This document shows, one piece after another, positions 4,313 to 30,706 of a DNA stretch of 30,815 nucleotides. Numbering within the stretch: position 1 is the first letter of the stretch; every line of letters starts with the position of its first letter. The notes under the pieces are model-generated. The model did not search any database, was not told the DNA's origin, and worked only from the letters and a program-made list of their open reading frames with translations. The position numbers and the translations under genes were made by a program. The DNA is taken from UHGV virus genome UHGV-0021747. One strand, written 5' to 3'. The stretch comes from a virus.

Positions 4313-4314
4313 AC

Positions 4315-6441
4315 ATGGCAGAGACATTAGAGAAAAAACATGAGCGGATCATGCTCAGGTTTGACCGCGCCTATTCTCCACAGCAGGAAGTGCGCGAAAA
4401 GTGCATTGAAGCTACGAGGTTTGCTCGTGTCCCCGGAGGTCAATGGGAAGGAGCAACGGCGGCTGGAACTAAGCTTGATGAGCAGTTCGAGAAGTATCCT
4501 AAGTTTGAAATCAATAAGGTAGCAACTGAACTTAACCGCATCATTGCAGAATACCGCAATAACAGAATCACCGTTAAGTTTCGTCCTGGTGACAGAGAGG
4601 CAAGCGAAGAGTTAGCCAATAAATTAAATGGTCTGTTCCGTGCTGACTACGAAGAAACTGATGGCGGTGAGGCTTGCGATAATGCATTTGACGACGCTGC
4701 TACTGGTGGTTTCGGTTGCTTCCGTTTGACGTCGATGCTGGTCAATGAATACGACCCCATGGACGATCGTCAGCGTATTGCTATTGAACCAATATACGAC
4801 CCGTCGCGCTCTGTGTGGTTTGACCCTGACGCTAAGAAGTACGACAAATCTGACGCGTTGTGGGCGTTCTGCATGTATTCGTTGTCACCTGAAAAATATG
4901 AGGCTGAATACGGAAAGAAACCTCCTGCTTCTCTGGACGTAACGTCTATGACCAGTTGGGAATATGACTGGTTTGATGCAGATGTTATTTACATAGCGAA
5001 GTATTACGAAGTTCGTAAAGAGTCTGTTGATGTTATCAGTTATCGACATCCAATCACTGGAGAGATTGCAACATACGACAGTGATCAGGTTGAAGATATT
5101 GAAGATGAACTGGCAATAGCTGGATTTCAGGAAGTGGCAAGGCGCTCAGTGAAGCGCCGTCGTGTGTATGTATCCGTAGTGGATGGTGATGGTTTCCTTG
5201 AGAAACCTCGACGTATTCCTGGTGAGCATATCCCCCTCATCCCGGTTTATGGAAAACGCTGGTTCATTGATGATATTGAGCGTGTCGAAGGGCACATTGC
5301 AAAAGCAATGGATCCACAGCGTTTGTACAACCTTCAGGTTTCAATGCTGGCTGATACTGCAGCGCAAGACCCCGGTCAGATCCCTATAGTTGGCATGGAG
5401 CAAATTCGTGGACTTGAGAAGCACTGGGAGGCTCGCAACAAGAAACGCCCAGCGTTCTTGCCGTTGCGCGAAGTGAGAGATAAATCTGGCAACATTATCG
5501 CTGGAGCTACCCCGGCAGGATATACACAGCCTGCGGTTATGAATCAGGCATTGGCTGCATTACTACAGCAAACCAGTGCTGATATTCAGGAGGTTACAGG
5601 CGGCAGTCAGGCCATGCAGCAGATGCCAAGTAATATTGCTCAGGAAACGGTTAACAACTTGATGAACAGAGCAGATATGGCTTCGTTTATCTATCTGGAC
5701 AATATGGCGAAAAGTCTTAAACGCGCTGGTGAAGTATGGCTGTCAATGGCGCGTGAAGTGTACGGTTCAGAACGTGAAGTGCGCATCGTTAACGAAGATG
5801 GAAGTGATGATATCGCTGTCCTGAGCGCACAGGTTGTTGACAGGCAAACAGGGGCTGTTGTTGCGTTAAATGACCTTTCTGTCGGTCGATACGATGTGAC
5901 GGTTGATGTTGGACCAAGCTACACAGCACGACGTGATGCAACGGTTTCTGTACTGACAAATGTCCTTAGCTCTATGCTTCCAACAGACCCAATGCGCCCG
6001 GCAATTCAGGGTATTATTCTGGACAATATCGATGGCGAAGGCCTTGATGACTTCAAAGAGTACAACCGAAACCAACTGCTGATATCTGGTATTGCAAAAC
6101 CACGCAATGAGAAAGAGCAGCAGATTGTTCAACAGGCGCAAATGGCAGCACAAAGCCAGCCAAATCCTGAAATGGTTCTCGCTCAGGCGCAAATGGTAGC
6201 AGCGCAGGCAGAAGCGCAAAAAGCAACTAACGAAACTGCTCAAACTCAAATCAAAGCATTTACTGCCCAGCAGGATGCGATGGAGAGTCAGGCAAACACT
6301 GTCTATAAACTGGCTCAAGCCAGAAACATCGATGACAAAGCAGTGATGGAGGCAATACGCCTTCTGAAAGATGTCGCCGAGTCACAACAACAGCAATTCC
6401 AGTCACCACCACAGTCACCGGCAGACTTAATGCCGAGTTAA
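4315..6441 (+). CDS. Portal protein (P22 gp1-like)
   Basis: Multiple blocks match the P22 portal as recalled (EFYEV..., KRRRVY..., AGEHIP..PV.G, NxRADxxxFxxDNxA, GRYxxxxDVGPS). Start chosen at ATG 4315 (MAETLEKK) just after the terL stop, not the upstream 4243. Confidence 0.9.
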   Translation: MAETLEKKHERIMLRFDRAYSPQQEVREKCIEATRFARVPGGQWEGATAAGTKLDEQFEKYPKFEINKVATELNRIIAEYRNNRITVKFRPGDREASEELANKLNGLFRADYEETDGGEACDNAFDDAATGGFGCFRLTSMLVNEYDPMDDRQRIAIEPIYDPSRSVWFDPDAKKYDKSDALWAFCMYSLSPEKYEAEYGKKPPASLDVTSMTSWEYDWFDADVIYIAKYYEVRKESVDVISYRHPITGEIATYDSDQVEDIEDELAIAGFQEVARRSVKRRRVYVSVVDGDGFLEKPRRIPGEHIPLIPVYGKRWFIDDIERVEGHIAKAMDPQRLYNLQVSMLADTAAQDPGQIPIVGMEQIRGLEKHWEARNKKRPAFLPLREVRDKSGNIIAGATPAGYTQPAVMNQALAALLQQTSADIQEVTGGSQAMQQMPSNIAQETVNNLMNRADMASFIYLDNMAKSLKRAGEVWLSMAREVYGSEREVRIVNEDGSDDIAVLSAQVVDRQTGAVVALNDLSVGRYDVTVDVGPSYTARRDATVSVLTNVLSSMLPTDPMRPAIQGIILDNIDGEGLDDFKEYNRNQLLISGIAKPRNEKEQQIVQQAQMAAQSQPNPEMVLAQAQMVAAQAEAQKATNETAQTQIKAFTAQQDAMESQANTVYKLAQARNIDDKAVMEAIRLLKDVAESQQQQFQSPPQSPADLMPS

Positions 6442-14130: not shown

Positions 14131-16127
14131 TGGCTAAAGCATGGAAAGATGTTATCGCCTCTCCACAGTATCAGGCGTTAGCACCAGAACAAAAAGCGCA
14201 GGCTCAGGAGCAATACTTCAATGAAGTCGTGGCCCCGCAAGCCGGAGAAAATGCAGAGCAGGCTAAGCAAGCTTTCTATGCTGCCTATCCATTGCCATCT
14301 GTGCAGCAAGTGGAGACACAGCAACCAGTTGCACAGCAACAACCACAGCAAAGTGGATTTATGTCTGATCTTGGCGAAGCAGTAAAAGAGACTGGTCGCG
14401 GACTGGTGCAGGCTGGCGTGAACGTGGCAAACATACCTGCATCAGTTGCCGATGCTGTAACAAGCGCGGCGGCTTGGGCTGGCGGTAAACTCGGCATTGG
14501 CGATGGTACATATCAACCAGCGCCACGAGTAACAACGCAGGGATTAGAGCAGGACTTTGGCCTTCAGCAAGGCGCGCTGACTCCACAAACGACAGAGGGA
14601 AGGGTATTTGCTGAAGCATTGCCTTACCTCACTCCTGCTGGCGTTGAGAGAGCGGCAACACAGGCACCAACACTTGCTGGTCGAATTGCTCAGGGGGCAA
14701 CTCGCCTTCTAGCAGAAAACGCAGTTGGATCACTTGCTGCAAATAGTGCGAAAGATGATGCGGAAGCACTCGCTACCGATTTAGGTGTTGGAGTTCTGGC
14801 AGGCGGCGCTATTAACGCTGCTGGACGTGGATTAGGTGCTGCTTATCGTGGTGTTCGTGGTTCGATATCACCCGAAGCGCAACAGGCTATCAAGTTTGCA
14901 GAGCGTGAAGGCGTGCCTCTGCACACCACAGACCTGTTACAACCGACTTCCCGCATCGGTAAAATGGCGCAGACGACAGCGGAAAATATCCCTCTGGCTG
15001 GCACAAGCGGAATGAGAGCAACGCAACAGGAAGCGAGAAGCCAGTTGGTGCAGAGATTTGCTGATAAATTCGGTGAGTATGATCCAGCTGTTGTTATTGA
15101 CAGCCTTAAAGCGAAAACATCAGGAATTCGTCGTGCTGCAGGGAACCGTCTTGAGCAGGTTCAGAATGCAATGGCGGGAGTCAATATCCAGCCTGCTCGA
15201 GCAATTCAGCAGATTGATACAGAAATATCTAACCTGCAGAAGCTTGGTAAGGTCGCCGATAACGAGACTATTTCAAAACTTCAGTCCTATCGTGATGAGC
15301 TTGTTCGCAATGCTGGTCCTGATGGTCCGGTAAATCTGGATTTGAAGCAATTAAGCGACCTGCGCAGCCAGTTCAGAATGGACGTGAAGGGTGAGCGACC
15401 AGTGTTACCAAACCGTTCCGATGCTGCCATTCAGCGCGTTTACAAGGCGATGACAGACGATATCAATGGTGCCATTGGTCAGAATCTTGGCAACGATACT
15501 CTCCGTAAATATCAGCAGGCCAATGCCGTATACGCTGACGAAGCGGCGAAACTAAAGAATACCAGGCTGAAGAATGTTCTCATGAAAGGCGATCTGACGC
15601 CGGAAGTTGTCAACAACATGCTATTCAGCAAGAACAAATCGGAAATTAAGACTCTGTATAACTCAGTTGGTCGTGTTGGCAGGGCGCAAATGCGCAATGG
15701 CATCATTGGAAAGGCGATGGAGAAATCAGGTGGTTCCCCTGACCAGTTCCTTCGGCAGCTTAACATCCTGCAAAACCAGACTGGCATCACATTTAAAGGT
15801 CAGGAAGCCGCTTATCTGAAAGGATTGAAAAACTACCTGCAATCCACGCAGCAGGCTGCAAAAGCGGCAGTAACAACACCAACAGGGCAGCAAACCATCC
15901 CGTTCATTATCGGGTATGGGACGGCAATGAACCCGGCGACAACTGCCGCAGCGGTAAGCTACGGACTTCTTACTCGCGCCTATGAGAGCGAGCCATTCAG
16001 AAATGCAATGCTCCGAATGGCAAACACCCCACGCGGATCAACAGCGTTTGAGAAAGCCATGCAGCAGGCGCAAAAGGCCATTAACGCCCTGACTCAAGGT
16101 GCCAAGTCTGATGCGTTGTCAGAATAG
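14130..16127 (+). CDS. Ejection protein, P22 gp16-like
   Basis: 665-aa ORF in the conserved position, coupled to the upstream gene by an ATGA overlap. Confidence 0.75.
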   Translation: MAKAWKDVIASPQYQALAPEQKAQAQEQYFNEVVAPQAGENAEQAKQAFYAAYPLPSVQQVETQQPVAQQQPQQSGFMSDLGEAVKETGRGLVQAGVNVANIPASVADAVTSAAAWAGGKLGIGDGTYQPAPRVTTQGLEQDFGLQQGALTPQTTEGRVFAEALPYLTPAGVERAATQAPTLAGRIAQGATRLLAENAVGSLAANSAKDDAEALATDLGVGVLAGGAINAAGRGLGAAYRGVRGSISPEAQQAIKFAEREGVPLHTTDLLQPTSRIGKMAQTTAENIPLAGTSGMRATQQEARSQLVQRFADKFGEYDPAVVIDSLKAKTSGIRRAAGNRLEQVQNAMAGVNIQPARAIQQIDTEISNLQKLGKVADNETISKLQSYRDELVRNAGPDGPVNLDLKQLSDLRSQFRMDVKGERPVLPNRSDAAIQRVYKAMTDDINGAIGQNLGNDTLRKYQQANAVYADEAAKLKNTRLKNVLMKGDLTPEVVNNMLFSKNKSEIKTLYNSVGRVGRAQMRNGIIGKAMEKSGGSPDQFLRQLNILQNQTGITFKGQEAAYLKGLKNYLQSTQQAAKAAVTTPTGQQTIPFIIGYGTAMNPATTAAAVSYGLLTRAYESEPFRNAMLRMANTPRGSTAFEKAMQQAQKAINALTQGAKSDALSE

Positions 16128-16216
16128 CTTCGCAAACACCAGGAACGTGCAAAAACCAAATATGTAGAACGCAATATTCAGCATATCTCTTTGCATAAAT
16201 CCTCCGTAACTGATAG

Positions 16217-16510
16217 TTAGCTGCTGTCTTTTTTATATAGCTCTTTGAGCGTATCAAAGACAATTTTCTTTACCATATCGGATTGTTGTTCTGCCATACG
16301 CTCTGCATCGTCAATGTAAACTGATGCAGAGCTTTGTTTAGTCAATGATTCTTCAATCGCTGCAATTATCTCTGAGTTCAGCGACCTGTTATTCATCTTC
16401 GCACGCTGTTTAATTTTCGCGTGAAGTTCATGCGGAAGTCTCAAGTGAAACTGCGCCTCGTCGTATTTGCTGTACATCCTTGATGCCTCACCAGTTGGGT
16501 GGAATGGCAT
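16217..16510 (-). CDS. mnt: Mnt-like ribbon-helix-helix repressor (likely start at the internal Met, 16477)
   Basis: C-terminal half ...RSLNSEIIAAIEESL...DDAERMAEQQSDMVKKIVFDTLKELYKK matches P22 Mnt closely as recalled; the N-terminal DNA-recognition strand differs. Confidence 0.8.
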   Translation of the reverse strand: MPFHPTGEASRMYSKYDEAQFHLRLPHELHAKIKQRAKMNNRSLNSEIIAAIEESLTKQSSASVYIDDAERMAEQQSDMVKKIVFDTLKELYKKDSS

Positions 16511-16550
16511 CGTAACCTACTGGATAAATACTCAATAGTACCATTTCGGT

Positions 16551-16573
16551 ATGCAATCACATCATGGTTGCAT
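16551..16573. promoter_or_regulatory. Inverted repeat ATGCAA-N11-TTGCAT between mnt and tailspike; candidate operator
   Basis: Seen directly in the sequence; sits in the divergent mnt/tailspike intergenic region. Confidence 0.3.
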
Positions 16574-16598
16574 CATATCATTCGTCTGGAGCAATGAA

Positions 16599-17090
16599 AT
16601 GTCAGATATCACCGCAAATGTTGTGGTAAGCATGCCTTCGCAACTCTTCACTATGGCTCGTTCTTTTAAAGCCGTAGCCAATGGCAAAATTTATATCGGT
16701 AAAATTGGCACTGACCCGGTAAATCCTGAAAACCAGATTCAGGTTTATGTGGAAAACGAAGACGGTTCTCACGTTCCTGTTGCACAGCCAATCATCATTA
16801 ACGCTGGCGGGTATCCTGTATATAACGGACAGATTGCCAAATTCGTAACTGTGCAAGGCCATTCTATGGCTGTATACGATGCGTACGGTTCTCAGCAGTT
16901 CTATTTTCCGAATGTGCTGAAGTATGACCCTGACCAGTTTGAGCAAAGGTTCATGGATGAAATTAGTTCGCCAGACGGTTACAAAATAATAGGTGGGTTA
17001 GAGGTCAGGCTTTCTGTATACGATATAGCTGCTGCTGATGGTGAAAGAAATAGCGATCAGTTGAATTCTTTTTTTGCTGAGTTTAAATGA
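16599..17090 (+). CDS. Tailspike N-terminal head-binding domain, ending at an in-frame TGA
   Basis: [11 protein letters not shown]...[34 protein letters not shown]...[15 protein letters not shown]...NVLKYDPDQ matches the P22 gp9 N-terminal domain as recalled. GGAG Shine-Dalgarno 8 nt upstream of the ATG. Confidence 0.85.
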
Positions 17091-17096
17091 ACTCCA

Positions 17097-18845
17097 GTGA
17101 AAATCTACTCAACTATGCCACTGACTTTCACTATCGACAAAGAGACAACGTTATACGGAGATTTTGATCTCAGCAATTGCACGTTCAACCTGGCTGGCGG
17201 TAAGATTGTTTATGCTGATGAGAGAGACGCATCTACATACATTAAAGATTTTACACCATCAGCATATCCATTAAACGAGCTAACTTCCGCGCTAACATTT
17301 ACAGAGTCAACCACTGGATGGGATAATTCCTTAGTTAAGATGTCTGGTACTGAAATTGACTTGTACCGATTGCTTGGCAGCACTTTCACGCCAAAATACA
17401 AAGGTGAAGTTAACCTACTAACCAAAGGAAGTGATTTAGCGTATACATTTAAGAATACATACAACTCTTCACTTATCTGTACTTTATATAAGCTGCCTGT
17501 GCGAAGGACTGTCATTGTATTGCCTAAGTTATCAGGGACGTTTACTGGCACGGCTGTTGATATCAAAAGGTCTATGGTTGATGTAAGGGTTAATTATGAT
17601 AATACCTTAGGAGCAATACCCATCAACTCTGCAATTTTTGGTAGTAGTAATACATACGGTGTTAATTGGTATTTGTGCTCATCGGGGATGACACAACCTG
17701 ATTCTGAATCTCGCTACACATTGACTCTAGAGTTTACTCTGAAGCATTCTTTTTTTAGCACTGTTGTTGGGAAAGGGTGGCGTTCTATTGATGGTAATTA
17801 TAGCCGTGACACTGTGGTAAGAGATTGCACTGTTGATAGCTTCAATCTTCATTATGGATCGTCTAAGGTTTTGATAGACAATTGCAGGATAATTAATGGC
17901 GCGGCTTTTGGTACTGGCGCTTTTGATGAATCAACGCAGATTATAAACTCAGATATTGGTCCCTTTGGGATTCGCACTGACTATGGAGAGCATAAGGGGG
18001 ATTTTATTGTCAAAGGGGGTTCGGTAAGAATATCATCGGACAAAACTGGGCTTGTAGATCTCTTCACATGCAGGTGTGATAATGTTGTTTCCACTGGTAG
18101 CCCTGTTCAGCCTAGAGCATTAAATCTGCCAAAAAATGTAATTATATCTACAAATATCTACTGGCCTGACGCAGTCACACTTAACATTGTTTCATTTAAA
18201 AATAATTTTAAGACACAAAATAGCATTATTCGTGATTTCATTATGCCTGGCGTTATAGATTTCTCCGGAAGCACCTTTAATGGTAAAAATGCAAGATTTG
18301 AGTGGGCCATCTCTTACCATGATTCAACTTCCAGAGAAATATCAATAGTCAATCTGACACCTGCGAAATCAATTGTTTGTAAGGTTTTAGCTTATATTGG
18401 ATACCTGAATGAGTATGCATCATGCCTTTATGGTCTTGAGAGCAATATGGACATAACTTTCATGAACTTTACGTCTGGAATGTCTCGCAGCTATATTAGG
18501 CTGGAAGGTGGGGTGCTGCGCAGGTTTGTTGGTTACTCCGGAGGGACAACCTATATGTTAGGAAGCGTGTATTTTGATAAGTCGTTGATAGATTGGGATT
18601 CAAGCAATAACCTAGTTTCAGGACTTATGTCGGTGTCTGATTGCCTTATAGACGGAACGAGGGCCAAAGGAACATCGTCCAGTAAGCCTGTTGTAAATAC
18701 ATTCGTGCACAGATCTGCAAATAATATTTGCCATGAAATTATTGCTACAGACTCAAGGGATGTGGTTGATAAGAAGTTCGCTTTATGCAGCAGGGAAGGT
18801 GCAGCAGGCAACTTCTCTACAGGAGAAATACCTATCTCTTACTAA
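17097..18845 (+). CDS. Putative tailspike receptor-binding (beta-helix-like) module, in frame with 16599..17090 across one TGA
   Basis: Same frame as the upstream ORF; no Shine-Dalgarno before GTG 17097 or ATG 17115. AT-rich, Ser/Thr/Asn/Gly/Ile-rich composition typical of tailspike beta-helix domains. Confidence 0.55.
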   Translation: MKIYSTMPLTFTIDKETTLYGDFDLSNCTFNLAGGKIVYADERDASTYIKDFTPSAYPLNELTSALTFTESTTGWDNSLVKMSGTEIDLYRLLGSTFTPKYKGEVNLLTKGSDLAYTFKNTYNSSLICTLYKLPVRRTVIVLPKLSGTFTGTAVDIKRSMVDVRVNYDNTLGAIPINSAIFGSSNTYGVNWYLCSSGMTQPDSESRYTLTLEFTLKHSFFSTVVGKGWRSIDGNYSRDTVVRDCTVDSFNLHYGSSKVLIDNCRIINGAAFGTGAFDESTQIINSDIGPFGIRTDYGEHKGDFIVKGGSVRISSDKTGLVDLFTCRCDNVVSTGSPVQPRALNLPKNVIISTNIYWPDAVTLNIVSFKNNFKTQNSIIRDFIMPGVIDFSGSTFNGKNARFEWAISYHDSTSREISIVNLTPAKSIVCKVLAYIGYLNEYASCLYGLESNMDITFMNFTSGMSRSYIRLEGGVLRRFVGYSGGTTYMLGSVYFDKSLIDWDSSNNLVSGLMSVSDCLIDGTRAKGTSSSKPVVNTFVHRSANNICHEIIATDSRDVVDKKFALCSREGAAGNFSTGEIPISY

Positions 18846-18851
18846 AGGTCA

Positions 18852-18875
18852 AGCCATGCGCTAACGCATGGCTTC
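18852..18875. terminator. Bidirectional terminator hairpin between the convergent tailspike and acyltransferase genes
   Basis: Perfect palindrome agccatgcg-ctaa-cgcatggct followed by ctaattttac on the + strand. Confidence 0.5.
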
Positions 18876-18880
18876 TAATT

Positions 18881-20029
18881 TTACTTTGAAAAGATCGCGG
18901 CAAATCTATGGGAAACCTCGATGCTTTTTCTGTCGATGAGCAAATAAAAGATGTAAGAACATGCATAAAGCATCACCACTGATATTAAAACAGCTGATAA
19001 ACATGCGCTGGAGTCGCTCATGATTTTCCTTGATTCATGATAAACTGGCCCTGATAAGCAATAAAATACAGGCATTTGAATCAAGTATGCCGAGAATGAT
19101 AACTTTCCTAAAAAGACCATGATTTTTGATTCAGAAAACCATGACATAACCCCAATCTTACATAGGGAATATACCACTCCAATTCCAGATAATAGATTGA
19201 AAAGCAAGTATACATTTATTTTCTCAATGCTGTGAATAGATAATGAAAATTCTTTTAACCATGCGTAAAGATAATGATTATATTTAAATCCAGCCAAGTA
19301 AAGTGATGCAATAAGAATTGCATATCCAATAACCTTATTCTTATATGAACCGCATAAACATATAGCCATACCAAAAAGGAATGATGCGTACCCATATGCA
19401 TTTTTATCATTAAAGTTAATTATGATTAAAACTGCGATTAAAGATAATATTAGCGGTGCTTTTTTAATAAAGATAGAAATAGGAGATATCAAAAAGACAA
19501 GGAGAGAACCATAAAACTCAACCTGCATAGTCCATGTAACCATATTTATTGATGAGTCACCTTTGAGTATGGAGCCATATAGTGAGTTTTTTAAAACTCC
19601 TATCACAGATAAATCACCATCTTTACCCAATGACCAAATCCACGGAACCCAATACTTATTGAAAGGGAAGTAATTTACAACAATTGCGCAAATAATAATC
19701 GATGCCGAAACTGGTATTAATAATCTTACATACCTTTCTAGCAGCATCTTTGCGGACTTCTTAGATATACAACCAGACCTGAAAATAACACTTGTAAGTA
19801 TATATCCGCTTAATACAAAGAATATATATACAGCTGAAGTTCCAGAGTAAGTGAAGCCTATTGGTAAATCTCTTGTCACCGCATCAAAAGAAGACTTAAT
19901 TATCTTTGTGTCTCCAGTATGCAGGTAAGGGAAAAAAATTATTGATAGATGAGAAAGCACTACCATCAAGCAGGCCAACCCCCTCACACCCTCTACCGAA
20001 AGAACCTTGCCACCATCAATCTTATTCAT
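18881..20029 (-). CDS. Acyltransferase family 3 integral membrane protein (putative O-antigen/surface polysaccharide acyltransferase)
   Basis: 382 aa from ATG at 20029 (the supplied ORF extends to TTG at 20050). Multi-pass hydrophobic profile and an N-terminal ...GVRGLACLMVVLSHL motif typical of acyltransferase-3. Strongly AT-rich. Confidence 0.8.
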   Translation of the reverse strand: MNKIDGGKVLSVEGVRGLACLMVVLSHLSIIFFPYLHTGDTKIIKSSFDAVTRDLPIGFTYSGTSAVYIFFVLSGYILTSVIFRSGCISKKSAKMLLERYVRLLIPVSASIIICAIVVNYFPFNKYWVPWIWSLGKDGDLSVIGVLKNSLYGSILKGDSSINMVTWTMQVEFYGSLLVFLISPISIFIKKAPLILSLIAVLIIINFNDKNAYGYASFLFGMAICLCGSYKNKVIGYAILIASLYLAGFKYNHYLYAWLKEFSLSIHSIEKINVYLLFNLLSGIGVVYSLCKIGVMSWFSESKIMVFLGKLSFSAYLIQMPVFYCLSGPVYHESRKIMSDSSACLSAVLISVVMLYACSYIFYLLIDRKSIEVSHRFAAIFSK

Positions 20030-20192
20030 ATAATTTCCGTATATGCACAAAGTTAGTGTGCATTAATAAAAGATAATACCCCTACTTGCATAACAGATAG
20101 CACGTGTAACTAAACGCTGAGCAATCAGAGGTTTCCGTAATTATCTGAGTTTATCACTCAAATCTCTATTGATCGACACCACCGATCGACAA

Positions 20193-20212
20193 TGCTGTGT
20201 TCATATACAGTA
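20193..20212. promoter_or_regulatory. LexA (SOS) box tgCTGTgttcatatACAGta
   Basis: CTGT-N8-ACAG with flanks close to the E. coli consensus, 18 bp upstream of the umuD'-like ATG and just upstream of its GGAGG Shine-Dalgarno. Confidence 0.55.
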
Positions 20213-20229
20213 ACTACCGGAGGTGAGTT

Positions 20230-20621
20230 ATGGGATTACCGATCCCGGCTGCTGATTACGTTGAGAACCGCCTGTCGCTTGATGAGAGATTCATCCACAA
20301 ACCGTATGCTACCTACTACATGAAAGCGTCAGAGACAATCTATCGCTTCGGCATTATGAAAGATGCGCTGCTGGTCATCGACTCGTCGCTACCCACCCCC
20401 TGTGATGGCTCATTGCTGGTTTGTGAGTTTGTGAGATAGTGGGTGAGTTCAAGGTGAAGATTTACCGAACATATCCTCAGCTTCATCTTGAGAACGCACT
20501 GAACGGGCGAAAAGAAAAGTTGCCTTGTCACTTTGGCGGGATAGAGACGGTATTTGGGGTGATCACGTGCATCATCAACGATGCGCGTACAGGTGAGTTT
20601 GATGGCTACCCGCTGAAGTGA
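20230..20621 (+). pseudogene. umuD'/humD-like gene split by a frameshift (8-bp tandem duplication tttgtgag at 20420..20435)
   Basis: ORFs 20230..20439 and 20439..20621 together align with UmuD residues about 25 to 139 as recalled (PAADYVE..., GEFxVK, VFGVI). Deleting one repeat copy restores a single 129-aa frame. The GDSM catalytic motif is replaced by ETIY. Confidence 0.6.
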
Positions 20622-20630
20622 AAATAGTGT

Positions 20631-20928
20631 TGTGTACCAAATTGCGTACCAAACTAAAATCACAAATCATGAAACCCTTGTTCATGGCGGTTCTCAGGGG
20701 TATTGCGCGTAATCGTGAAAGAGGAAGGTAGGTTGTTTATCTGTGTCTGTCATTGTCTAGCATTGTCCACTGTAGTTAATTAACTGTCTGTTATAACTCG
20801 AAAAACAACCATTTTTTCACCTGAGTATGTCTACGAACGTCAAATATAGTTGTTTACTGTGCGCTGTTGTCCATGTGATATTGTGTACCAGATGTGTACC
20901 AAACCATTATTTCTGAGCGTACCAAATA
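20631..20928. other. Putative attP: five GTACCA(A/G)A arm-type repeats flanking a ~230-bp AT-rich core
   Basis: Repeats at 20634, 20647, 20885, 20896 and 20920, immediately upstream of int; typical of integrase arm sites. Confidence 0.45.
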
Positions 20929-20934
20929 TTATTT

Positions 20935-22113
20935 ATGGCTATAAGCGACACAAAACTGCGTACTATTTATGGTAAACCATATTCGGGCCCACAAGAAGTG
21001 GCTGATGCCGATGGCCTCAGCGTACGAATTTCACCGAAGGGGGTCATCCAGTTCCAGTACCGCTATCGCTGGCATGGCAAGCCTAATCGACTTGGGCTTG
21101 GTCGATACCCATCCCTGTCTTTGAAGGATGCCAGACAGATCACTGCTGACTTGCGAAAGCTCTATTTCTCAGGAACGGATCCACGCACCTATTTTGAAGA
21201 GAAGGTGGAGAACTCCATGACGGTCGCCCAGTGTCTCGACTACTGGTTCGACAACTACGTCTCTACAACTCTCAGAGAAAAGACCCAGGCACTTTACCGA
21301 TCAACGGTTATGAAGCGCATGCATGACGCCTTTCCTAATCGTCCGGCATCTTCTATCACGGTTAAGCAATGGGTTGACCTGCTTACCGAAGAAGAAAGAG
21401 ATAATCCACGCCGAGCAAGGCAGGTGCTAAGTCAACTAAGATCAGCAATAAGTTGGTGCATGCGGCGTCAGTTGATAGATAGTTGCGCAATTATGAGCAT
21501 CCAACCAAGGGACTTCGGCTCCCGCGCTGAGGTAGGGGATCGGGTACTGTCGTATCACGAACTGGCTAAGATTTGGCTTGCTATTGAAAGAAGCCGTGCG
21601 TCTACGTCAAATAAGCTCCTTCATCAGATGCTTATGCTGTGGGGGGCGAGGCTCTCAGAGCTTAGGCTGGCAACAAAGACAGAATTTGACCTGCTGGACA
21701 ACGTATGGACCGTACCGAAAGAGCATAGCAAGATGGGTAATGTTATCCGCCGTCCAATCTTCGAACAAATTAAGCCTTTTCTCGAAAAGGCCATGACAAC
21801 GTACAATGATGTTCTTTTCCCTGGAGAAGACATAAACAAACCGATCAGCATCGCTGCAGCCAACCGATTCGTAAATAGAATAAGGGGAGGGATGGATCTG
21901 GGTTACTGGCGAACACATGATTTCAGAAGAACGCTTGTTACACGTCTGTCCGAGATGAATGTCGAGCCTCATGTTACTGAGCGAATGCTCGGTCATGAAC
22001 TTGGCGGGATAATGTCCGTATACAATAAACACGACTGGATAGAGGCTCAGCGCAAAGCGTATGAGCTTCACGCTGATAAATTGTTCTGGCACATCAGGAG
22101 CATTTCTGATTAA
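20935..22113 (+). CDS. int: Tyrosine integrase (P4-like, N-terminal arm-binding domain)
   Basis: N-terminus ...DGLSVRISPKGVIQFQYRYRWHGKPNRLGLGRYPSLSLKDAR is the arm-type DNA-binding domain signature; C-terminus has HDFRRT...LGH...VYNKHDW catalytic motifs. Confidence 0.9.
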   Translation: MAISDTKLRTIYGKPYSGPQEVADADGLSVRISPKGVIQFQYRYRWHGKPNRLGLGRYPSLSLKDARQITADLRKLYFSGTDPRTYFEEKVENSMTVAQCLDYWFDNYVSTTLREKTQALYRSTVMKRMHDAFPNRPASSITVKQWVDLLTEEERDNPRRARQVLSQLRSAISWCMRRQLIDSCAIMSIQPRDFGSRAEVGDRVLSYHELAKIWLAIERSRASTSNKLLHQMLMLWGARLSELRLATKTEFDLLDNVWTVPKEHSKMGNVIRRPIFEQIKPFLEKAMTTYNDVLFPGEDINKPISIAAANRFVNRIRGGMDLGYWRTHDFRRTLVTRLSEMNVEPHVTERMLGHELGGIMSVYNKHDWIEAQRKAYELHADKLFWHIRSISD

Positions 22114-25206: not shown

Positions 25207-25385
25207 TTCTTCCCACTCCGCAACATCGCATTCAGATATTTGTTTTGATTCACTGATGGAAAAGAATTTCTCTTAAGTAATTCCTCTCTCGATGGCATTT
25301 GCTTTACGCGTTGGCGAATAATCATTTCTGCCGGAAGAATGCCGGGATTGTATGCAAGTCCTCTCATGGTAAATTCCTCAGTCAT
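25203..25385 (-). CDS. Hypothetical small protein (60 aa from the internal ATG)
   Basis: Start placed 2 nt after the stop of 25378..25674; the longer frame to 25550 overlaps the upstream gene. Confidence 0.3.
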
Positions 25386-25674
25386 TACTGATAGCGCCAT
25401 AGCGTGAGCGGTAATTACGCAGGCGCGGGTCGATATATTCAGGGAAGTGGGTATATGTGGCTTTGCGGAATGGTCGGATTGATGTCTGGTAAATTCGCTC
25501 TCGTTCTTCTTTCTCTGCAAGCCATATACAATGGCGAAATTCCTTTTCATCTTTCGTTTCCTGCGGTAGAGACATTATTCGATCGTAGTTTTTTCTGAAT
25601 TTATCCAGCACCTCCGATACGGAATTGCCGGAACAGCGGCGCTGGTCATCCGCACCATACAGAGGCGCTGGCAT
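25378..25674 (-). CDS. Hypothetical protein (98 aa)
   Basis: ORF with balanced charged composition; no family recognised. Confidence 0.5.
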
Positions 25675-25690
25675 GTTTTTCTCCTGTTGA

Positions 25691-26239
25691 TTATTTAGCT
25701 AATTTTTTCCAGATTGCTGAAACGTATTTGGCTTGGTGGATGGCATCATCAAGCGCGTTGTGGCGAGTTCCTTTGAATGGCATATCTCGCTTAGGGTCAA
25801 ATCCTATTACCTTTCCAAGCTCGACGATTGTTCTTACGTCGCGGTCATTCCACCACTGCCACGGAACTGGCTGCCCTGTCAGCGAATAACTGTTGCGGAG
25901 AATAACGCAGTCAAATGATGCTCCATTCCCCCAAACCTGAACGAATTTGTGGTTAGCGTTCTTTATGATGAATTCAGATAACCATGAAAGAGCCGTTGAA
26001 AGCTCCTGAGTGTTGCTGGTTAGCGATTTTCTGGCTTCTTCACTCTGTTCCATCCACCATAAAATCGTTGAAGCGTCAGGACGCGCCCGATATCGCATTG
26101 ATGACTCAAGCGAGATATTTACCGAGAACTCTTCTCCTGTTTCTCCGGTATTCGGGTCAAAGAACACCGCCCCAATAGAAATAACTGGCGCGTATGGCCC
26201 GTTGCCCATTGTTTCAAGGTCAACCATTAAGTGATTCAT
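25691..26239 (-). CDS. DEDDh-type 3'-5' exonuclease
   Basis: MVDLETMG (Exo I motif) and HNALDDA (Exo III motif) at the expected spacing. Confidence 0.75.
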   Translation of the reverse strand: MNHLMVDLETMGNGPYAPVISIGAVFFDPNTGETGEEFSVNISLESSMRYRARPDASTILWWMEQSEEARKSLTSNTQELSTALSWLSEFIIKNANHKFVQVWGNGASFDCVILRNSYSLTGQPVPWQWWNDRDVRTIVELGKVIGFDPKRDMPFKGTRHNALDDAIHQAKYVSAIWKKLAK

Positions 26240-26247
26240 GTAAGTCC

Positions 26248-26727
26248 TTAAATTGCGTGAATAGTGTGACGAGGGAAGGGGAGAGTTACTGGCTCCTCGT
26301 CTGGGTAGATAGGTTTGTTATGTTTGTGCCACTCGACATGACATGACTTGCAGAGCCACATCACATCGGTTGGTTTGCTGTAGTCGCAGTGGTGCGCCTG
26401 TGGTTTACATTCTGATCCGCAGCACTCACATTGTGGTGGTCGGATTAGCTTACCGTCGCGCAAAAAATTACCCACGATGATGTGGGCTTTTCTTTTCCAT
26501 GGGTTGCTCTGAATGAACCGCTTTTTGGCTGCGTTACACCGTTCTCTGCCGCGTTCCGATGATTGATATTCTCTCCTTGCTGATACTCGATGTGGCAATC
26601 CCGCGCGCTCTTTGTCATATTCAGCCAGGCAAGCCCGGCAAGCGGCAGTTAATCCATCTCTGGATGCTCTTCTGATTTGAAAGTCCCTTTCTTCCTTCTG
26701 TTGATGGCATCTTGAGCAGATTTTCAT
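26248..26727 (-). CDS. HNH endonuclease
   Basis: Cys pairs and HHCDYSKP...WLCKSCHVEWH are characteristic of an HNH/zinc-finger nuclease. Confidence 0.7.
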   Translation of the reverse strand: MKICSRCHQQKEERDFQIRRASRDGLTAACRACLAEYDKERAGLPHRVSARREYQSSERGRERCNAAKKRFIQSNPWKRKAHIIVGNFLRDGKLIRPPQCECCGSECKPQAHHCDYSKPTDVMWLCKSCHVEWHKHNKPIYPDEEPVTLPFPRHTIHAI

Positions 26728-26736
26728 ATTCAGCTC

Positions 26737-27210
26737 CTAGAACGGAATATCCGAATCGTCGAAGTTCATAGGTGGTTCGCTGTGATTTCCATGCTGCTGA
26801 GGTTGCTGTCTTTGTTGATGACCGTTATTTCGCTGAGGTGAAGACTGTTCATTGCCTCCTTGCTTGCCACCAAGCATTTGCATGGTTCCACCAACGCCCA
26901 CGATGACTTCGGTAGTGAACCTATCCTGTCCGCTTTGATCCTGCCATTTTCTTGTCCGCAATTTGCCTTCAAGATAAACCTCAGAGCCTTTTCGCAGATA
27001 TTCGCTGGCAATTTCTGCCAGTTTCCCGCTCATTACCACACGGTGCCACTCCGTCTGCTCCTTTTGCTCTCCAGTTTGCTTATCACGCCATTGTTCTGAC
27101 GTAGCAACTGTAAGGTTTGCAAATGCCGTTCCTGATGGTGAATATCTGATTTCTGGATCATGCCCAAGGCGACCAATAATGATCACCTTATTTACGCCTC
27201 TGCTTGCCAT
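26737..27210 (-). CDS. ssb: Single-stranded DNA-binding protein
   Basis: Near-identity over the OB-fold to E. coli SSB as recalled ([10 protein letters not shown]..., [42 protein letters not shown]), with the C-terminal DDSDIPF tail. Confidence 0.95.
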
Positions 27211-27918
27211 TTATGCCGCCTGTTTTAGTTCGTTAACTCTGATGCTCATTACCTGAACGCATTTAGCCTGCGCCTCCTCGTTGCCAGCCATTAATTGCCA
27301 GTCACGCTGATAACGCTCGATGAGTTTTTTCTTGTCAGTTTCTGTTGATGCATAATCGCTGAAGTCTTTCAGGATTTGTTCGCAGTCAACCGATGGAGAT
27401 TTCTGGTTGGTATTTTCTGGTGATGGTTTGTTATCTGATGCTGGGATTGCCCATCCCGGAAGTGATGGAGGGAGCCAGTAAAATCCCGTTCCATCCTTCA
27501 GTTTTGCCCTGTGCCACCCCTGCTTTTTATCGAGAGATGTTTGTGCGAAACCTTCCTCAAGGTTATACAGATACCGACCGATTCCCCACTGAACGGCAGC
27601 ACGCTTCATTGCACCGGAACGACCACCTTTGACGGCTTCTACCTGCGTGTTTTCAGCAGCATCCCATTTGGTTACCCATTCGGAATCAATCTTGATTGAT
27701 ATGCCGCATTCAACTCCGCCGTTGTTGGGAATATCGCGGTATTCATTGCGCCATCCTGCTTTGCCGCAAACATCGTCCAGGCGTTTCATGATTGCCCGGT
27801 TCGTGACATAAGCCAGCACCATAGCCCACACTTTTCCATCGCGTGTTTTACCGCTTTGCTGTATTCGCCATTCGATATCTTCAGGGCTGAATGGCTCGTC
27901 GAATTTATTCAAATTCAT
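27211..27918 (-). CDS. Single-strand annealing recombinase (Rad52/Sak-like N-terminal domain, Erf-like C-terminal tail)
   Basis: GGRSGAMKRAAVQWGIGRYLY motif in the N-domain; C-terminal ...TETDKKKLIERYQRDWQL...KCVQVM.IR.NELKQ resembles the P22 Erf C-terminus as recalled. Confidence 0.75.
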   Translation of the reverse strand: MNLNKFDEPFSPEDIEWRIQQSGKTRDGKVWAMVLAYVTNRAIMKRLDDVCGKAGWRNEYRDIPNNGGVECGISIKIDSEWVTKWDAAENTQVEAVKGGRSGAMKRAAVQWGIGRYLYNLEEGFAQTSLDKKQGWHRAKLKDGTGFYWLPPSLPGWAIPASDNKPSPENTNQKSPSVDCEQILKDFSDYASTETDKKKLIERYQRDWQLMAGNEEAQAKCVQVMSIRVNELKQAA

Positions 27919-27926
27919 AATTCACC

Positions 27927-28097
27927 TCAGAATGGACATGGCCCAAGGAAATAACGCTGATTTAATACTTCGACTCGGGACAAATTAAGGCATACCAGCA
28001 TTCCTTCGCGGTCGCCATTATGGCGATACCAGAGAGCTTTCTGCGTGTACATGCGTCTCTGTAACTTGCTCTCCTTCACTGTGGTTGCAAGTGACAT
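27927..28097 (-). CDS. Small ORF (56 aa), positional arf candidate
   Basis: Hand-translated; strong AAGGAG Shine-Dalgarno 7 nt upstream, and its stop overlaps the recombinase ribosome-binding site. Confidence 0.35.
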   Translation of the reverse strand: MSLATTVKESKLQRRMYTQKALWYRHNGDREGMLVCLNLSRVEVLNQRYFLGPCPF

Positions 28098-28176
28098 GAA
28101 TATCTCCTTCGTTACCGATTAATTCTTTCATCTGACGAATAAATTCTTCGTCTGACCAGTTATCTGTAAAACTCAT
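28018..28176 (-). CDS. Small acidic ORF (52 aa), overlaps 27927..28097 in another frame
   Basis: Hand-translated; ATGA-coupled to the upstream ORF. Only one of the two overlapping frames is likely to be real. Confidence 0.25.
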   Translation of the reverse strand: MSFTDNWSDEEFIRQMKELIGNEGDIHVTCNHSEGEQVTETHVHAESSLVSP

Positions 28177-28325
28177 TTCCTGCGATACCACGGAAGGTTG
28201 ATAGCTGATTTCATTGCTTTATTTGCTTCAAGCCACATTTTTGAATCACCAATAAATCTGGCTATTACTGCTTTGTTCTGTGCAGCACGAAGCATCTGGT
28301 GATTAATAGCTATTTCATTGCGCAT
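28173..28325 (-). CDS. Small protein (50 aa), possibly Kil-like
   Basis: Hand-translated; GGAGG Shine-Dalgarno. Contains ...IARFIGDSKMW..., reminiscent of lambda Kil from memory. Confidence 0.35.
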   Translation of the reverse strand: MRNEIAINHQMLRAAQNKAVIARFIGDSKMWLEANKAMKSAINLPWYRRK

Positions 28326-28510: not shown

Positions 28511-28533
28511 AAAAAAACCCTCACACTGGAGGG
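28511..28533 (-). terminator. Rho-independent terminator candidate (minus strand)
   Basis: Hairpin ccctc-N6-gaggg followed by a U7 tract on the minus strand. Confidence 0.5.
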
Positions 28534-28650
28534 CAAAGAAGATTTCCAATAATCAGAACAAGTCGGCTCCTGTTTAGTTACGAGCGACATTGCTCCGTGT
28601 ATTCACTCGTTGGAATGAATACACAGTGCAGTGTTTATTCTGTTGTTTAT

Positions 28651-28678
28651 GCCAAAAATAAAGGCCGACTATTCGGCC
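28651..28678 (-). terminator. Rho-independent terminator candidate (tL1 analogue) at the 3' end of the acidic gene
   Basis: Hairpin ggccga-ctat-tcggcc followed by uuuauuuuugg on the minus strand. Confidence 0.5.
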
Positions 28679-28992
28679 TTATCTACATTCCTGAACCAAA
28701 CGCAGATCGGACCGTCTTCTGTATCGTGAATCGAACCGACAAACCATCCTTCTCCATCTGGCATGCTTGGCTCCCATCCACTGATGTTTTGATTCCCATC
28801 TTCAAAATACGCGTCAATTACCGTTTGATTGTTGTCGTTTTCCATTTCAACAATTGATGATTCAATGCCATGCTGCTTGCAGAAAGATCTGAACTCATCA
28901 GCTGAAATTACCTCTCTATCCCCAAACAGGTTGGCGTATTCTGGGTGCGTCCAGTAGCCATCCTCGCTTCGCTCTACTACTAATGCTTCCAT
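28669..28992 (-). CDS. Acidic hypothetical protein (107 aa), immediately downstream of N
   Basis: GGTGAG Shine-Dalgarno overlaps the N stop, with an 8-bp intergenic gap. Strongly acidic (many D/E); no family recognised. Confidence 0.6.
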   Translation of the reverse strand: MEALVVERSEDGYWTHPEYANLFGDREVISADEFRSFCKQHGIESSIVEMENDNNQTVIDAYFEDGNQNISGWEPSMPDGEGWFVGSIHDTEDGPICVWFRNVDKAE

Positions 28993-29000
28993 ATCTCACC

Positions 29001-29327
29001 TCAAATAAGTGGTTTACTGCCTAATTTCATTTTCTGGCGACCAACACAAGTTACACCCATTTCACTGCGTGGCTTGCTGTACCATGTGCGCTGATTCTTG
29101 CGCTCAATACGTTGCAGGTTGCTTTCAATCTGTTCGTGGTATTCAGCCAGCACTGTAAGGTCTATCGGATTCAGTGCGCTTTCTACTCGTGATTTCGGTT
29201 TGCGATTCAGCGAGAGAATAGGGCGGTTAACTGGTTTTGCGCTTACCCCAACCAACAGGGGATTTGCTGCTTTCCATTGAGCCTGTTTCTCTGCGCGACG
29301 TTCGCGGCGGCGTGTTTGTGCATCCAT
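29001..29327 (-). CDS. N: Antitermination protein N (lambda-type)
   Basis: MDAQTRRRERRAEKQAQWKAANPLLVGVSAKPVNRPILSLNRKPKSRVESALNPIDLTVLAEYH.QIESNLQRIERKNQRTWYSKP reads as essentially lambda N. Start taken at the internal Met of the supplied ORF. Confidence 0.9.
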   Translation of the reverse strand: MDAQTRRRERRAEKQAQWKAANPLLVGVSAKPVNRPILSLNRKPKSRVESALNPIDLTVLAEYHEQIESNLQRIERKNQRTWYSKPRSEMGVTCVGRQKMKLGSKPLI

Positions 29328-29499
29328 CTGGATTCTCCTGTCAGTTAGCTTTGGTGGTGTGGTAGGTGGGAGACCCATTTCGACCTGCTTCGGCCGACTT
29401 CAATTCGGCAATAGTTCCGCAGGCCTCGCCGCTTTACGTGCGACATATTCCCATCCATGAACCCTTCACCACACCCCAAAGCCTTCTGCTTTGAATGCT

Positions 29500-29530: not shown

Positions 29531-29574
29531 CCACCTTCATGGTGGTCAGTGCGTCCTGCTGATGGCTTAAAATA

Positions 29575-29654
29575 TACCTACAGGTAAAACATCTGTCTAT
29601 ACCTGTAGGTAAATATAATTGATGTGAGAGTTTACCTGCTTGAATTTTCAGGTA
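29575..29654. promoter_or_regulatory. OL/pL operator region: palindromes TACCTACAGGTA (29575..29586, 29600..29611) and split TACCTG-N10-CAGGTA (29633..29654)
   Basis: Repeated 12-bp palindromes upstream of the N leader, identical to sites upstream of cI. Confidence 0.55.
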
Positions 29655-29708: not shown

Positions 29709-30023
29709 TCAGAAGCTATTTGGATTGCTTGGCCATTGCGGCAATTTTGATTCTACTGGGGTGTGTTTGGGTTTGAGTCCGTTTAAGTAGTCAAGGCGCT
29801 CAATGGCGCATTTATACATAGCAATCTGCTCTGATGACATGTCGTCGTATGACATGCCTTTGAACTTTTTAATTATCGATTCTGCCTCATGTATAAGATG
29901 CTTCTTCCTCATGAGTTCAGCTGTATGCTTAGAGCTTACAGGAGATAACTTTGCCCATATGAAGCAGATGATTACAACAGCGACTACTATGCCGGGTATA
30001 AACATTTGCTGCTTTATCCTCAA
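29709..30023 (-). CDS. Small single-pass membrane protein (104 aa) translationally coupled to cI
   Basis: ATGA overlap with the cI stop. N-terminal hydrophobic helix IPGIVVAVVIICFIWAKL then a charged soluble domain. AT-rich; followed by the operon terminator. Confidence 0.6.
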   Translation of the reverse strand: MRIKQQMFIPGIVVAVVIICFIWAKLSPVSSKHTAELMRKKHLIHEAESIIKKFKGMSYDDMSSEQIAMYKCAIERLDYLNGLKPKHTPVESKLPQWPSNPNSF

Positions 30024-30706
30024 ACTTTTGGCAGATCGTCCTGGTCTACGTACCTGGTGTGTTTCACAATAGCTGAAACAAAATGCATTTTATCAACTTC
30101 TTCAACAGGAAGAGTGATTGGGCGGTGATCACTGTTTATGCTACTAAACTGATAATCACCGTCTCTTGTTTTGTTCATGATCTTTATCATGTTGTGACCG
30201 TCTTTGGTCCTTACAAAGACTTCATCACCTGGATGTACTGGCGTATTTGGTTCAATAACAACATATTCTCCTGACTGAATCCTTGGCCACATGCTGTCAC
30301 CCTTAACCTTCAGACCGTAAGCATCTTTATCGCCGCTGTAGATGCTTAACCAACCGGATCTGAATTCAATCATATCCACTGAGCCATCAACTCCCAAAAC
30401 GGCTTCACCAATTACCGGAACAAAACCCGCACGAACGTTACCCGCAAACTCAAGATGGTCCGTAGCTCCAGCTTTACCATCTGCAAGCATGTCCATCCAT
30501 CCGCGTGGGAGATTAAAAGATTTTTCAATTAGTTCCATCATATCGTCAGCAATGCGTTTTTTTCCGCTTTTTCCTTCCGGATACAGCATTCTGGAAACGT
30601 ATGATGGTTCCCTTTCTATTCGACGAGCCAACTCTGAGGCCTTTCCATTACAGAATCGGTCTCTTATCTCTATCAGCCTTAGTCGTCTTTGTTCGTATTT
30701 ATCCAT
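30020..30706 (-). CDS. cI: cI-type prophage repressor (N-terminal HTH plus S24 LexA-like autopeptidase domain)
   Basis: Ala-Gly cleavage-site candidate (GKAGAT), GDSMWP catalytic Ser motif and a downstream Lys (MIKIM); 228 aa. Confidence 0.9.
   Translation of the reverse strand: MDKYEQRRLRLIEIRDRFCNGKASELARRIEREPSYVSRMLYPEGKSGKKRIADDMMELIEKSFNLPRGWMDMLADGKAGATDHLEFAGNVRAGFVPVIGEAVLGVDGSVDMIEFRSGWLSIYSGDKDAYGLKVKGDSMWPRIQSGEYVVIEPNTPVHPGDEVFVRTKDGHNMIKIMNKTRDGDYQFSSINSDHRPITLPVEEVDKMHFVSAIVKHTRYVDQDDLPKV

Follow-up and report, generated by a model that had tools for sequence, protein, structure and literature searches.

A 2025 catalogue of lambdoid recombination (Rec) modules (Genome Res 2025, PMC12315714) covers single-stranded DNA-binding proteins (SSBs) of type SSB-1, Rad52/Erf-type annealing proteins, DnaQ-like 3'-5' and HNH nucleases, and Abc2, with epsilon34 (DnaQ) and ES18 (HNH) as its named examples. 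According to the same survey, a Rec module is found in almost every headful packager (PMC12315714). We analyzed such a module in the virus genome UHGV-0021747, a stretch of 30,815 nucleotides (nt) hereafter called the window, in which an earlier note made from the letters alone had pointed to four tightly packed recombination genes at 25691-27918. Every component type of the window module is included in the catalogue (PMC12315714). Whereas the window has two nucleases, only three phages of the catalogue's panel carry two genes of one function, and none of these pairs HNH with DnaQ (PMC12315714). The catalogued HNH gene of ES18 belongs to the HNH_3 family, another family than the window HNH. 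Domain shuffling lies outside the scope of the survey (PMC12315714).

The arrangement of the window is already in GenBank, and its module type has been known since the 2025 catalogue. Megablast of 25300-28100 retrieved CurroJimenez_Bas106 (Bas106), which has all five genes of the module in the same order at 97.9% identity; its genes 0030-0034 are annotated as Erf-like annealing protein, SSB, endonuclease, exonuclease and abc2, and nothing material differs from the window. Genes 25-28 of Shigella phage Sf6 (abc2, gp26, ssb and gp28) share 98% DNA identity, order and orientation with the window but lack the exonuclease cassette. Near-identical annotated modules also occur in mEp235 and epsilon34. 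With the gene order annotated in Bas106 and Sf6 and the components catalogued in 2025, the module itself adds little.

A comparison with the P22 erf region, which the earlier note had proposed, shows partial likeness. The arf-erf-abc1-abc2 genes of P22 agree with the window in operon position, in Abc2 and in the annealing protein's C-terminal domain (62% identity), but P22 has an ERF core, carries Abc1 and Arf, and has no SSB, HNH or exonuclease gene. The lambda Red (Exo-Beta-Gam) and RecET systems resemble the window in combining a phage annealing protein with an anti-RecBCD function in the pL operon. Unlike these SynExo pairs, the window has no 5'-3' exonuclease partner, only a 3'-5' DEDDh exonuclease, and Abc2, according to the literature, redirects RecBCD rather than blocking it. 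From N to the Ead/Ea22 gene, none of the open reading frames (ORFs) scanned showed a 5'-3' exonuclease domain (lambda Exo/YqaJ or RecE). As the window exonuclease has 3'-5' polarity, it would not be a resection partner of the lambda-Exo/RecE type; a lambda-Red-like pairing of exonuclease and annealase was ruled out by exonuclease polarity and family.

We read the region, with a probability of roughly 0.75, as the Rec module of an Sf6-like, P22-type headful-packaging Escherichia coli phage or prophage, consisting of a core pathway and two optional nuclease add-ons. Its predicted genes and domains, with lengths in amino acids (aa), are as follows.

27211-27918, minus strand: single-strand annealing protein, 235 aa (Pfam Rad52_Rad22, AF2 model, Foldseek)
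27511-27909, minus strand: Rad52/Sak-type core of the annealing protein, aa 4-136, including GIGRYLY at aa 112-118 (Pfam)
27214-27450, minus strand: linker and C-terminal domain common to P22 Erf, aa 157-235 of the annealing protein (BLASTP)
26737-27210, minus strand: SSB, bacterial type, 157 aa (Pfam SSB, TIGR00621)
26248-26727, minus strand: divergent HNH (His-Me finger) nuclease, 159 aa, Sf6 gp26 type (PHROG 2340, conserved residues, AF2)
25691-26239, minus strand: DEDDh (DnaQ-like, DexA-like) 3'-5' exonuclease, 182 aa (Pfam PF16473)
25378-25674, minus strand: Abc2 anti-RecBCD protein, 98 aa, a module member beyond the range of the earlier note (Pfam, PHROG 656)

The four minus-strand ORFs in the window's ORF list that the earlier note had singled out do fill 25691-27918 exactly, with intergenic spacers of 0, 9 and 8 nt from the annealing-protein gene to the exonuclease gene. 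The note had left out abc2, which starts 16 nt 3' of the exonuclease gene (module spacers overall 0-16 nt) and likely provides the resection function together with host RecBCD, as in P22. Each of the five genes gave a strong family match in at least one of the Pfam, PHROGs, NCBIfam and PDB sequence searches, and on this sequence evidence we take them to be real genes rather than chance ORFs. The observation behind the earlier note is confirmed, and its interpretation is partly supported.

In the pathway we propose, the module would be read from pL as a single N-antiterminated, tightly coupled message. Abc2 would bind host RecBCD and give an end-resecting activity, as P22 and HK620 work suggests; the phage SSB would coat the single strands left by resection; and the Rad52-fold protein, of a ring-forming type, would pair complementary strands, for example in circularizing the terminally redundant genome. 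The HNH and DEDDh exonuclease genes would be two separate promoter-less add-on cassettes, dispensable for this core: the HNH protein may be a free-standing homing-type endonuclease beside ssb, as T4 segG is beside gene 32, and the DexA-like exonuclease an accessory 3'-end trimmer. The DNA that headful phages like P22 inject is linear and terminally redundant. It already has ends, and therefore no endonuclease would be needed to make them.

Within this core, Abc2 matches Pfam Anti-RecBCD_p2 over aa 1-98 (PF11043; 1.5e-60, 201.9 bits, 97-position profile) and belongs to PHROG 656. Of the module variants examined, only 103203_sal5 has no annotated abc2 gene. According to the literature, Abc2 binds RecBCD and redirects rather than blocks it, with ends being prepared for recombination (PMC5928155, PMC12315714). 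End resection would most likely, by analogy, be carried out by Abc2-modified RecBCD and not by the 3'-5' exonuclease. For the following step, a phage SSB can stimulate the annealing protein that belongs with it via the SSB C-terminal tip, as shown for HK620 Sak4 (PMC5928155). The window SSB matches Pfam PF00436 (1.1e-38, 131.9 bits) and TIGR00621 (2.2e-53, 181 bits against a cut-off of 53.95), and terminates in ...NFDDSDIPF directly before the stop codon, a canonical acidic tip.

By sequence and model, the annealing protein is a domain hybrid with a Rad52 rather than an ERF core and an Erf-type tail, as the earlier note had supposed. Residues 4-136 match Pfam Rad52_Rad22 (PF04098) at 4.8e-26, with 91.9 bits against a cut-off of 20.3. 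The same match was found in 31 of 31 aligned homologues and, from 5587 homologues in total, in 120 of 120 among the matches listed. ERF (PF04404), the family that the earlier note had set beforehand against a Rad52 assignment, gave no Pfam match for the window protein, while the N-terminal part of P22 Erf, run as a control, matched it at 4.6e-46. The AF2 model (31 homologues, pLDDT 82) shows a beta-rich core that reaches about residue 125; next come three short strands (126-149), a disordered stretch (160-177), and C-terminal helices at 179-192, 196-209 and 214-234. In a Foldseek search of the PDB, the top 16 matches were yeast Mgm101 and human RAD52 (E 2e-4 to 7e-3, probability 0.84-1.00); the TM-scores were low (0.2-0.45) because the query model carries extra domains.

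Only aa 157-235 align to P22 Erf (residues 134-205; 62% identity, BLASTP E 1e-29), and tblastn matched P22 erf at 1e-22. The Pfam ERF model ends near Erf residue 146, and the common C-terminal domain falls outside it. ERF cores bearing this domain are found in Klebsiella phage RCIP0098, Erwinia phage Eho49 and two fragments (P0099 and P0100), and Rad52 cores bearing it in a Yersinia phage and, separately, in P0094. The three-helix domain, which a flexible linker joins to the core, is, judging from these alignments, interchangeable between Rad52-type and ERF-type cores. A HMMER scan of 1.84 billion representative proteins with the domain returned only 20 matches, which marks it as a narrow enterobacterial domain, and told little of its N-terminal partners; searching the 62-aa domain against a large protein index returned short fragments only. 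The C-terminal domain probably docks some partner, by analogy with the lambda Beta C-terminal domain and the dependence of HK620 Sak4 on the SSB tip. As a swappable candidate partner-docking module, it could account for host or partner specificity.

Between the two domains, aa 134-159 of the annealing protein (27442-27519, minus strand) carry a WW-like signature, GW...GxFYW.PP.LP.WA.P, with W135 and W156 spaced by 21 residues and followed by xxP. A reading of this segment as a WW domain was considered, since phmmer weakly matched the WW domain of PRP40 (E 0.1) and three short strands are confidently predicted, but Pfam WW matched 0 of 31 homologues, and the signature is kept as a remark only.

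The HNH and exonuclease genes are optional add-on genes, not obligate parts of the module. Pairwise blastn against annotated relatives delimits two cassettes.

25687-26247: exonuclease cassette, the gene plus its ribosome-binding site (junctions 25686/26248)
~26293-26864: HNH cassette, made up of the 3'-terminal 128 nt of ssb, which cover linker and tip, and all but the final 45 nt of the HNH gene (junctions 26292/26865-26867)

The exonuclease cassette is precisely missing from Sf6, IME10 and HK75, while mEp235, HK75 and epsilon34 lack the HNH cassette or have something else in its place. Isolated phages thereby show all four combinations, with clean junctions: HK75 has neither gene, Sf6 only the HNH gene, mEp235 and epsilon34 only the exonuclease gene, and Bas106 and the window have both. 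Of 5426 complete E. coli genomes, 1383 contain parts of the module, about 99 the HNH gene and 152-173 this exonuclease allele; about 93% of such modules in E. coli prophages lack the HNH gene. The exact HNH-exonuclease junction occurs in 38 complete genomes, a figure that comes from a junction-specific query.

These distributions bear on the idea, put forward in the earlier note, that the four genes form a single functional cassette. In such an integrated machine, the HNH protein would make ends, the DEDDh exonuclease process them, SSB coat the strands and the Rad52-like protein anneal them. The genes are indeed tightly packed and co-oriented in one operon, the four-gene order is kept at about 98% identity in Bas106 and the 38 E. 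coli genomes, and T4 DexA helps to process endonuclease-made breaks during homing (PMC2988022). Yet each nuclease gene is independently missing in viable relatives, and an exonuclease of 3'-5' polarity leaves an overhang of the wrong kind for recombination by annealing. Moreover, abc2 is near-universal among the variants and would supply resection through RecBCD, and headful-packaged genomes have ends already. We therefore regard an integrated four-gene machine as improbable. The earlier note had itself held that a lack of the HNH gene in functional relatives would speak against its proposal, and mEp235, HK75 and epsilon34 are isolated, viable phages without it. Near-isogenic natural modules with and without each nuclease are available for direct genetics.

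The HNH label itself is carried by motif residues, model and homology, with Pfam, NCBIfam and PDB sequence searches silent. Searched as a single sequence and as a 34-sequence profile, the HNH ORF gave nothing usable against these three, and PF01844 (HNH) was detected in just 2 of 34 homologues, at E 0.68. Its assignment to PHROG 2340, 'endonuclease', is strong (2.6e-47). We found 77 homologues, almost none with a Pfam domain, and relatives in 513 phage records by tblastn. In an alignment of 34 homologues (35-87% identity), C100, C103, H112, H113, D115, Y116, P119, L125, H130, W133 and H134 are invariant, and C4, C7, C30, C33 and C126 nearly so, giving the pattern CxxC...HHxDY...LCxxCHxxWH. A Zn ribbon (C4, C7, C30, C33) stands at the N-terminus, followed by a helical region and a zinc-bound HNH motif (C100, C103, H112, H113, D115, C126, H130, H134). 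The AF2 model (pLDDT 93) places a beta-beta-alpha element at 110-136 (strands 110-113 and 122-125, helix 127-136, pLDDT ~97 there). Foldseek with this model returned 31 BFVD matches with E no higher than 1e-3, and many of these bear the name HNH, HNHc or endonuclease VII; against the PDB, the whole model gave nothing significant, the best HNH protein being Cap5 (E 0.97).

One of these relatives is I-KsaII, whose gene lies in a polA group I intron of Staphylococcus Kayvirus phages (PMC5618024). It aligns with the window protein over its full length (35% identity, BLASTP 2e-29) and shares the Zn ribbon, helical region and HNH motif; I-KsaII lies within an intron, but its window counterpart is a free-standing gene that separates ssb from the exonuclease gene. 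We accept the 26248-26727 product as a predicted divergent HNH nuclease, kin of intron-encoded endonucleases. This family, which escapes Pfam and NCBIfam, shows a strong positional tie to ssb genes. In 12 of 12 sampled RefSeq E. coli genomes (NCBI PGAP), an intact 159-aa HNH ORF stands without an annotated feature, as at positions 3945-4424 of locus L004. Database proteins also exist that fuse part of the HNH protein with an SSB domain (P0011, P0014) or an exonuclease domain (P0022, P0053, P0060, P0063), which suggests frameshifted or deleted module derivatives in some prophages.

The earlier note had offered two roles for the HNH gene, supplier of DNA ends or selfish insertion. End-making is unneeded where headful ends exist, and the selfish, homing-type option fits best; we give a free-standing homing-type endonuclease roughly even odds. 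The gene is sporadic among close relatives and forms a promoter-less cassette beside a conserved gene. By pairwise blastn, a mosaic boundary falls within ssb, at ~26865, as expected under co-conversion. Along with its homology to I-KsaII, the HNH gene has a slot in common with a second homing-type HNH. In the Salmonella phages ES18 (gp47, L013 3328-3849) and 103203_sal5 (gp33, L008 1867-2259), the position following ssb is taken by another endonuclease, a member of HNH_3, which is an HNH homing-endonuclease family by Pfam companion match. The presence of this unrelated gene between ssb and abc2 marks the slot as a recurrent landing site for endonuclease genes. A precedent is found in T4, whose free-standing endonucleases (seg, mob) are promoter-less cassettes, with segG located at 32/59 and targeting gene 32 (PMC2988022). 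Like the window gene, segG is a promoter-less, free-standing gene beside a phage SSB gene (PMC2988022), but it encodes a GIY-YIG rather than an HNH enzyme, and homing and cleavage are only putative for the window gene, whose phage is, unlike T4, temperate and has unmodified DNA.

Several observations weigh against our reading of the module, most of them concerning the HNH gene. We fetched 80 IMG/VR HNH loci and clustered their HNH proteins at 70% identity into 23 clusters, 22 of which have upstream DNA. An SSB ORF ends within ~115 nt upstream of the HNH start in 15-17 of these 22 (~70%); example loci for this adjacency, in the range L050-L098, are L060 (3243-3950), L063 (3218-3991), L070 (3252-3980) and L094 (47-511). 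Some of the neighboring SSBs belong to a second family, PHROG 743 (235-257 aa, no PF00436 match), and both SSB types occur within single HNH clusters although the two families look unrelated. Adjacency to two dissimilar SSB families is not easily accounted for by sequence-specific homing. A functional link would explain the SSB-HNH adjacency, as would replacement of ssb around a resident HNH gene. The catalogue authors hold that tightly packed HNH and DnaQ genes are likely true Rec-module members (PMC12315714). In addition, the exonuclease could, by analogy with EcD and DexA, act in defense or nucleotide scavenging, and we infer the activities of all the window proteins.

Part of this evidence can be turned into a specific alternative, in which the Sf6 gp26/I-KsaII-like HNH protein serves SSB as a dedicated nuclease and is brought to SSB-coated DNA, where it would nick, cut or resolve intermediates of recombination or replication. 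It would then be half of a conserved 'SSB + HNH' pair, perhaps working with the DexA-like exonuclease, and not purely selfish. HNH relatives lie directly 3' of ssb not only in Sf6-type modules but also in Sortsne (RecE-ERF-SSB-HNH), Klebsiella VLCpiS13b (Sak4-MuGam-SSB-HNH), Vibrio K73 (DnaQ-like-ERF-SSB-HNH), Vibrio D80 and the IMG/VR clusters. The pair extends over Escherichia, Klebsiella and Vibrio phages and uncultivated viral contigs, with three annealing-protein families and at least two SSB families, both of the latter within single HNH clusters. A full-text search found no literature description of HNH-ssb adjacency across these phages. The fold matches include proteins named recombination endonuclease VII, and the catalytic residues are invariant across the 34 homologues. 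Against a dedicated partner stand the lack of the gene in closely related viable phages and in the large majority (~93%) of such E. coli prophage modules, and the relatives in the polA group I intron, between primase and polymerase genes and near tail fiber genes. The slot can also hold another HNH family, and T4 segG is a selfish endonuclease beside an SSB gene (PMC2988022). We therefore put forward an SSB partner only as a tentative possibility and favor the homing-type endonuclease.

In the HNH-less phages HK75, mEp235 and epsilon34, SSB is 168 aa long, and a ...DFDDDIPF tip is followed by 15 extra residues, APVTLPFPRHAIHAI, that match the C-terminal tail of the HNH protein (EPVTLPFPRHTIHAI in the window). 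The corresponding segments are as follows.

26248-26292 of the window: end of the HNH gene
1885-1929 of L007: HK75, extra SSB tail
2948-2992 of L003: mEp235, extra SSB tail
2444-2488 of L009: epsilon34, extra SSB tail

From this match, the 45-nt segment (window 26248-26292) codes for the C-terminus of whichever gene precedes it. In the 168-aa form, the extra tail would, judging from its position, bury the partner-binding tip. We considered whether microhomology had mediated a deletion from the ssb stop region to the 3' end of the HNH gene, where an AGGAGC repeat exists, and rejected this: the stop codon would survive such a deletion, so the SSB-tail fusion is left unexplained by it.

The exonuclease matches Pfam PF16473 (Rv2179c-like) over its full length (2.8e-73, 245.8 bits), and the DEDDh residues are visible as D7, E9, D110, H160 and D165. 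Its closest solved structures in a PDB sequence search are 8KEL and 8KEN (7e-14), both T4 DexA (PMC12153337). With family match, five motif residues and DexA in agreement, the DEDDh label given in the earlier note stands. DexA is a DEDDh 3'-5' exonuclease that trims 3' ends and shapes homing efficiency and co-conversion (PMC2988022). Our preferred reading of the window homologue is likewise an accessory nuclease that would trim 3' tails.

A different function is suggested by EcD, an E. coli DexA homologue reported to degrade DNA containing 5-hydroxymethylcytosine (5hmC) and to protect against T4, with Escherichia as the commonest genus among bacterial homologues (PMC12153337). The window exonuclease may thus be a DexA/EcD-like nuclease outside recombination, directed against competing phages with modified DNA ('HREX'), or a nucleotide scavenger. 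Both its closest solved structure, T4 DexA, and its behavior as an independent cassette are compatible with this, as is the gap at DexA D90, the tetramer-forming residue, to which no window residue aligns. DexA W152, the tryptophan of 5hmC recognition, aligns with window W130. Against a defensive role, DexA D169, proposed for 5hmC recognition (PMC12153337), aligns with F147 in the window, with D148 adjacent. The gene also recurs inside Rec modules (epsilon34, mEp235, L045, L089). It belongs to the N-dependent pL operon, and since the scan showed no promoter-like site for the gene itself, a lysogen should not express it. On balance, defense or scavenging is a real but less likely alternative, and accessory 3'-end trimming is preferred.

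The surroundings place the module in the early-left (pL) operon of a lambdoid phage because the neighbors are cI, N, cIII and kil genes, a pL-like site lies upstream and no promoter-like site showed up in the module itself. By Pfam and PHROGs, the upstream genes are two small ORFs, then kil, cIII, N and a cI-type repressor, and a consensus scan found no promoter-like site within 25691-27918. The remaining window DNA is ~97% identical to structural genes of Sf6 and its relatives.

27927-28097 and 28018-28191, minus strand: two overlapping small ORFs, 56 and 57 aa (PHROG 1723 and 2123)
28661-28680 and 28517-28534: terminator-like sites between N and the module (consensus scan)
29001-29378: N gene (Pfam N36 match)
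29571-29599, minus strand: pL-like promoter upstream of N (consensus scan)
30020-30706: cI-type repressor gene

The two small ORFs lie directly upstream of the annealing-protein gene, the position of arf in P22. A Pfam search gave no Phage_Arf match for them; PHROG 1723 and 2123 both carry the label 'recombinase', and the Sf6 counterparts are gp29 and gp30. Elsewhere in the window, GC content drops to 0.34-0.43 at ~16000-21000, compared with ~0.48 in the rest. This dip spans the ORFs at 17097-18845 (plus strand) and 18881-20050 (minus strand), upstream of the ORF at 20935-22113 (plus strand).

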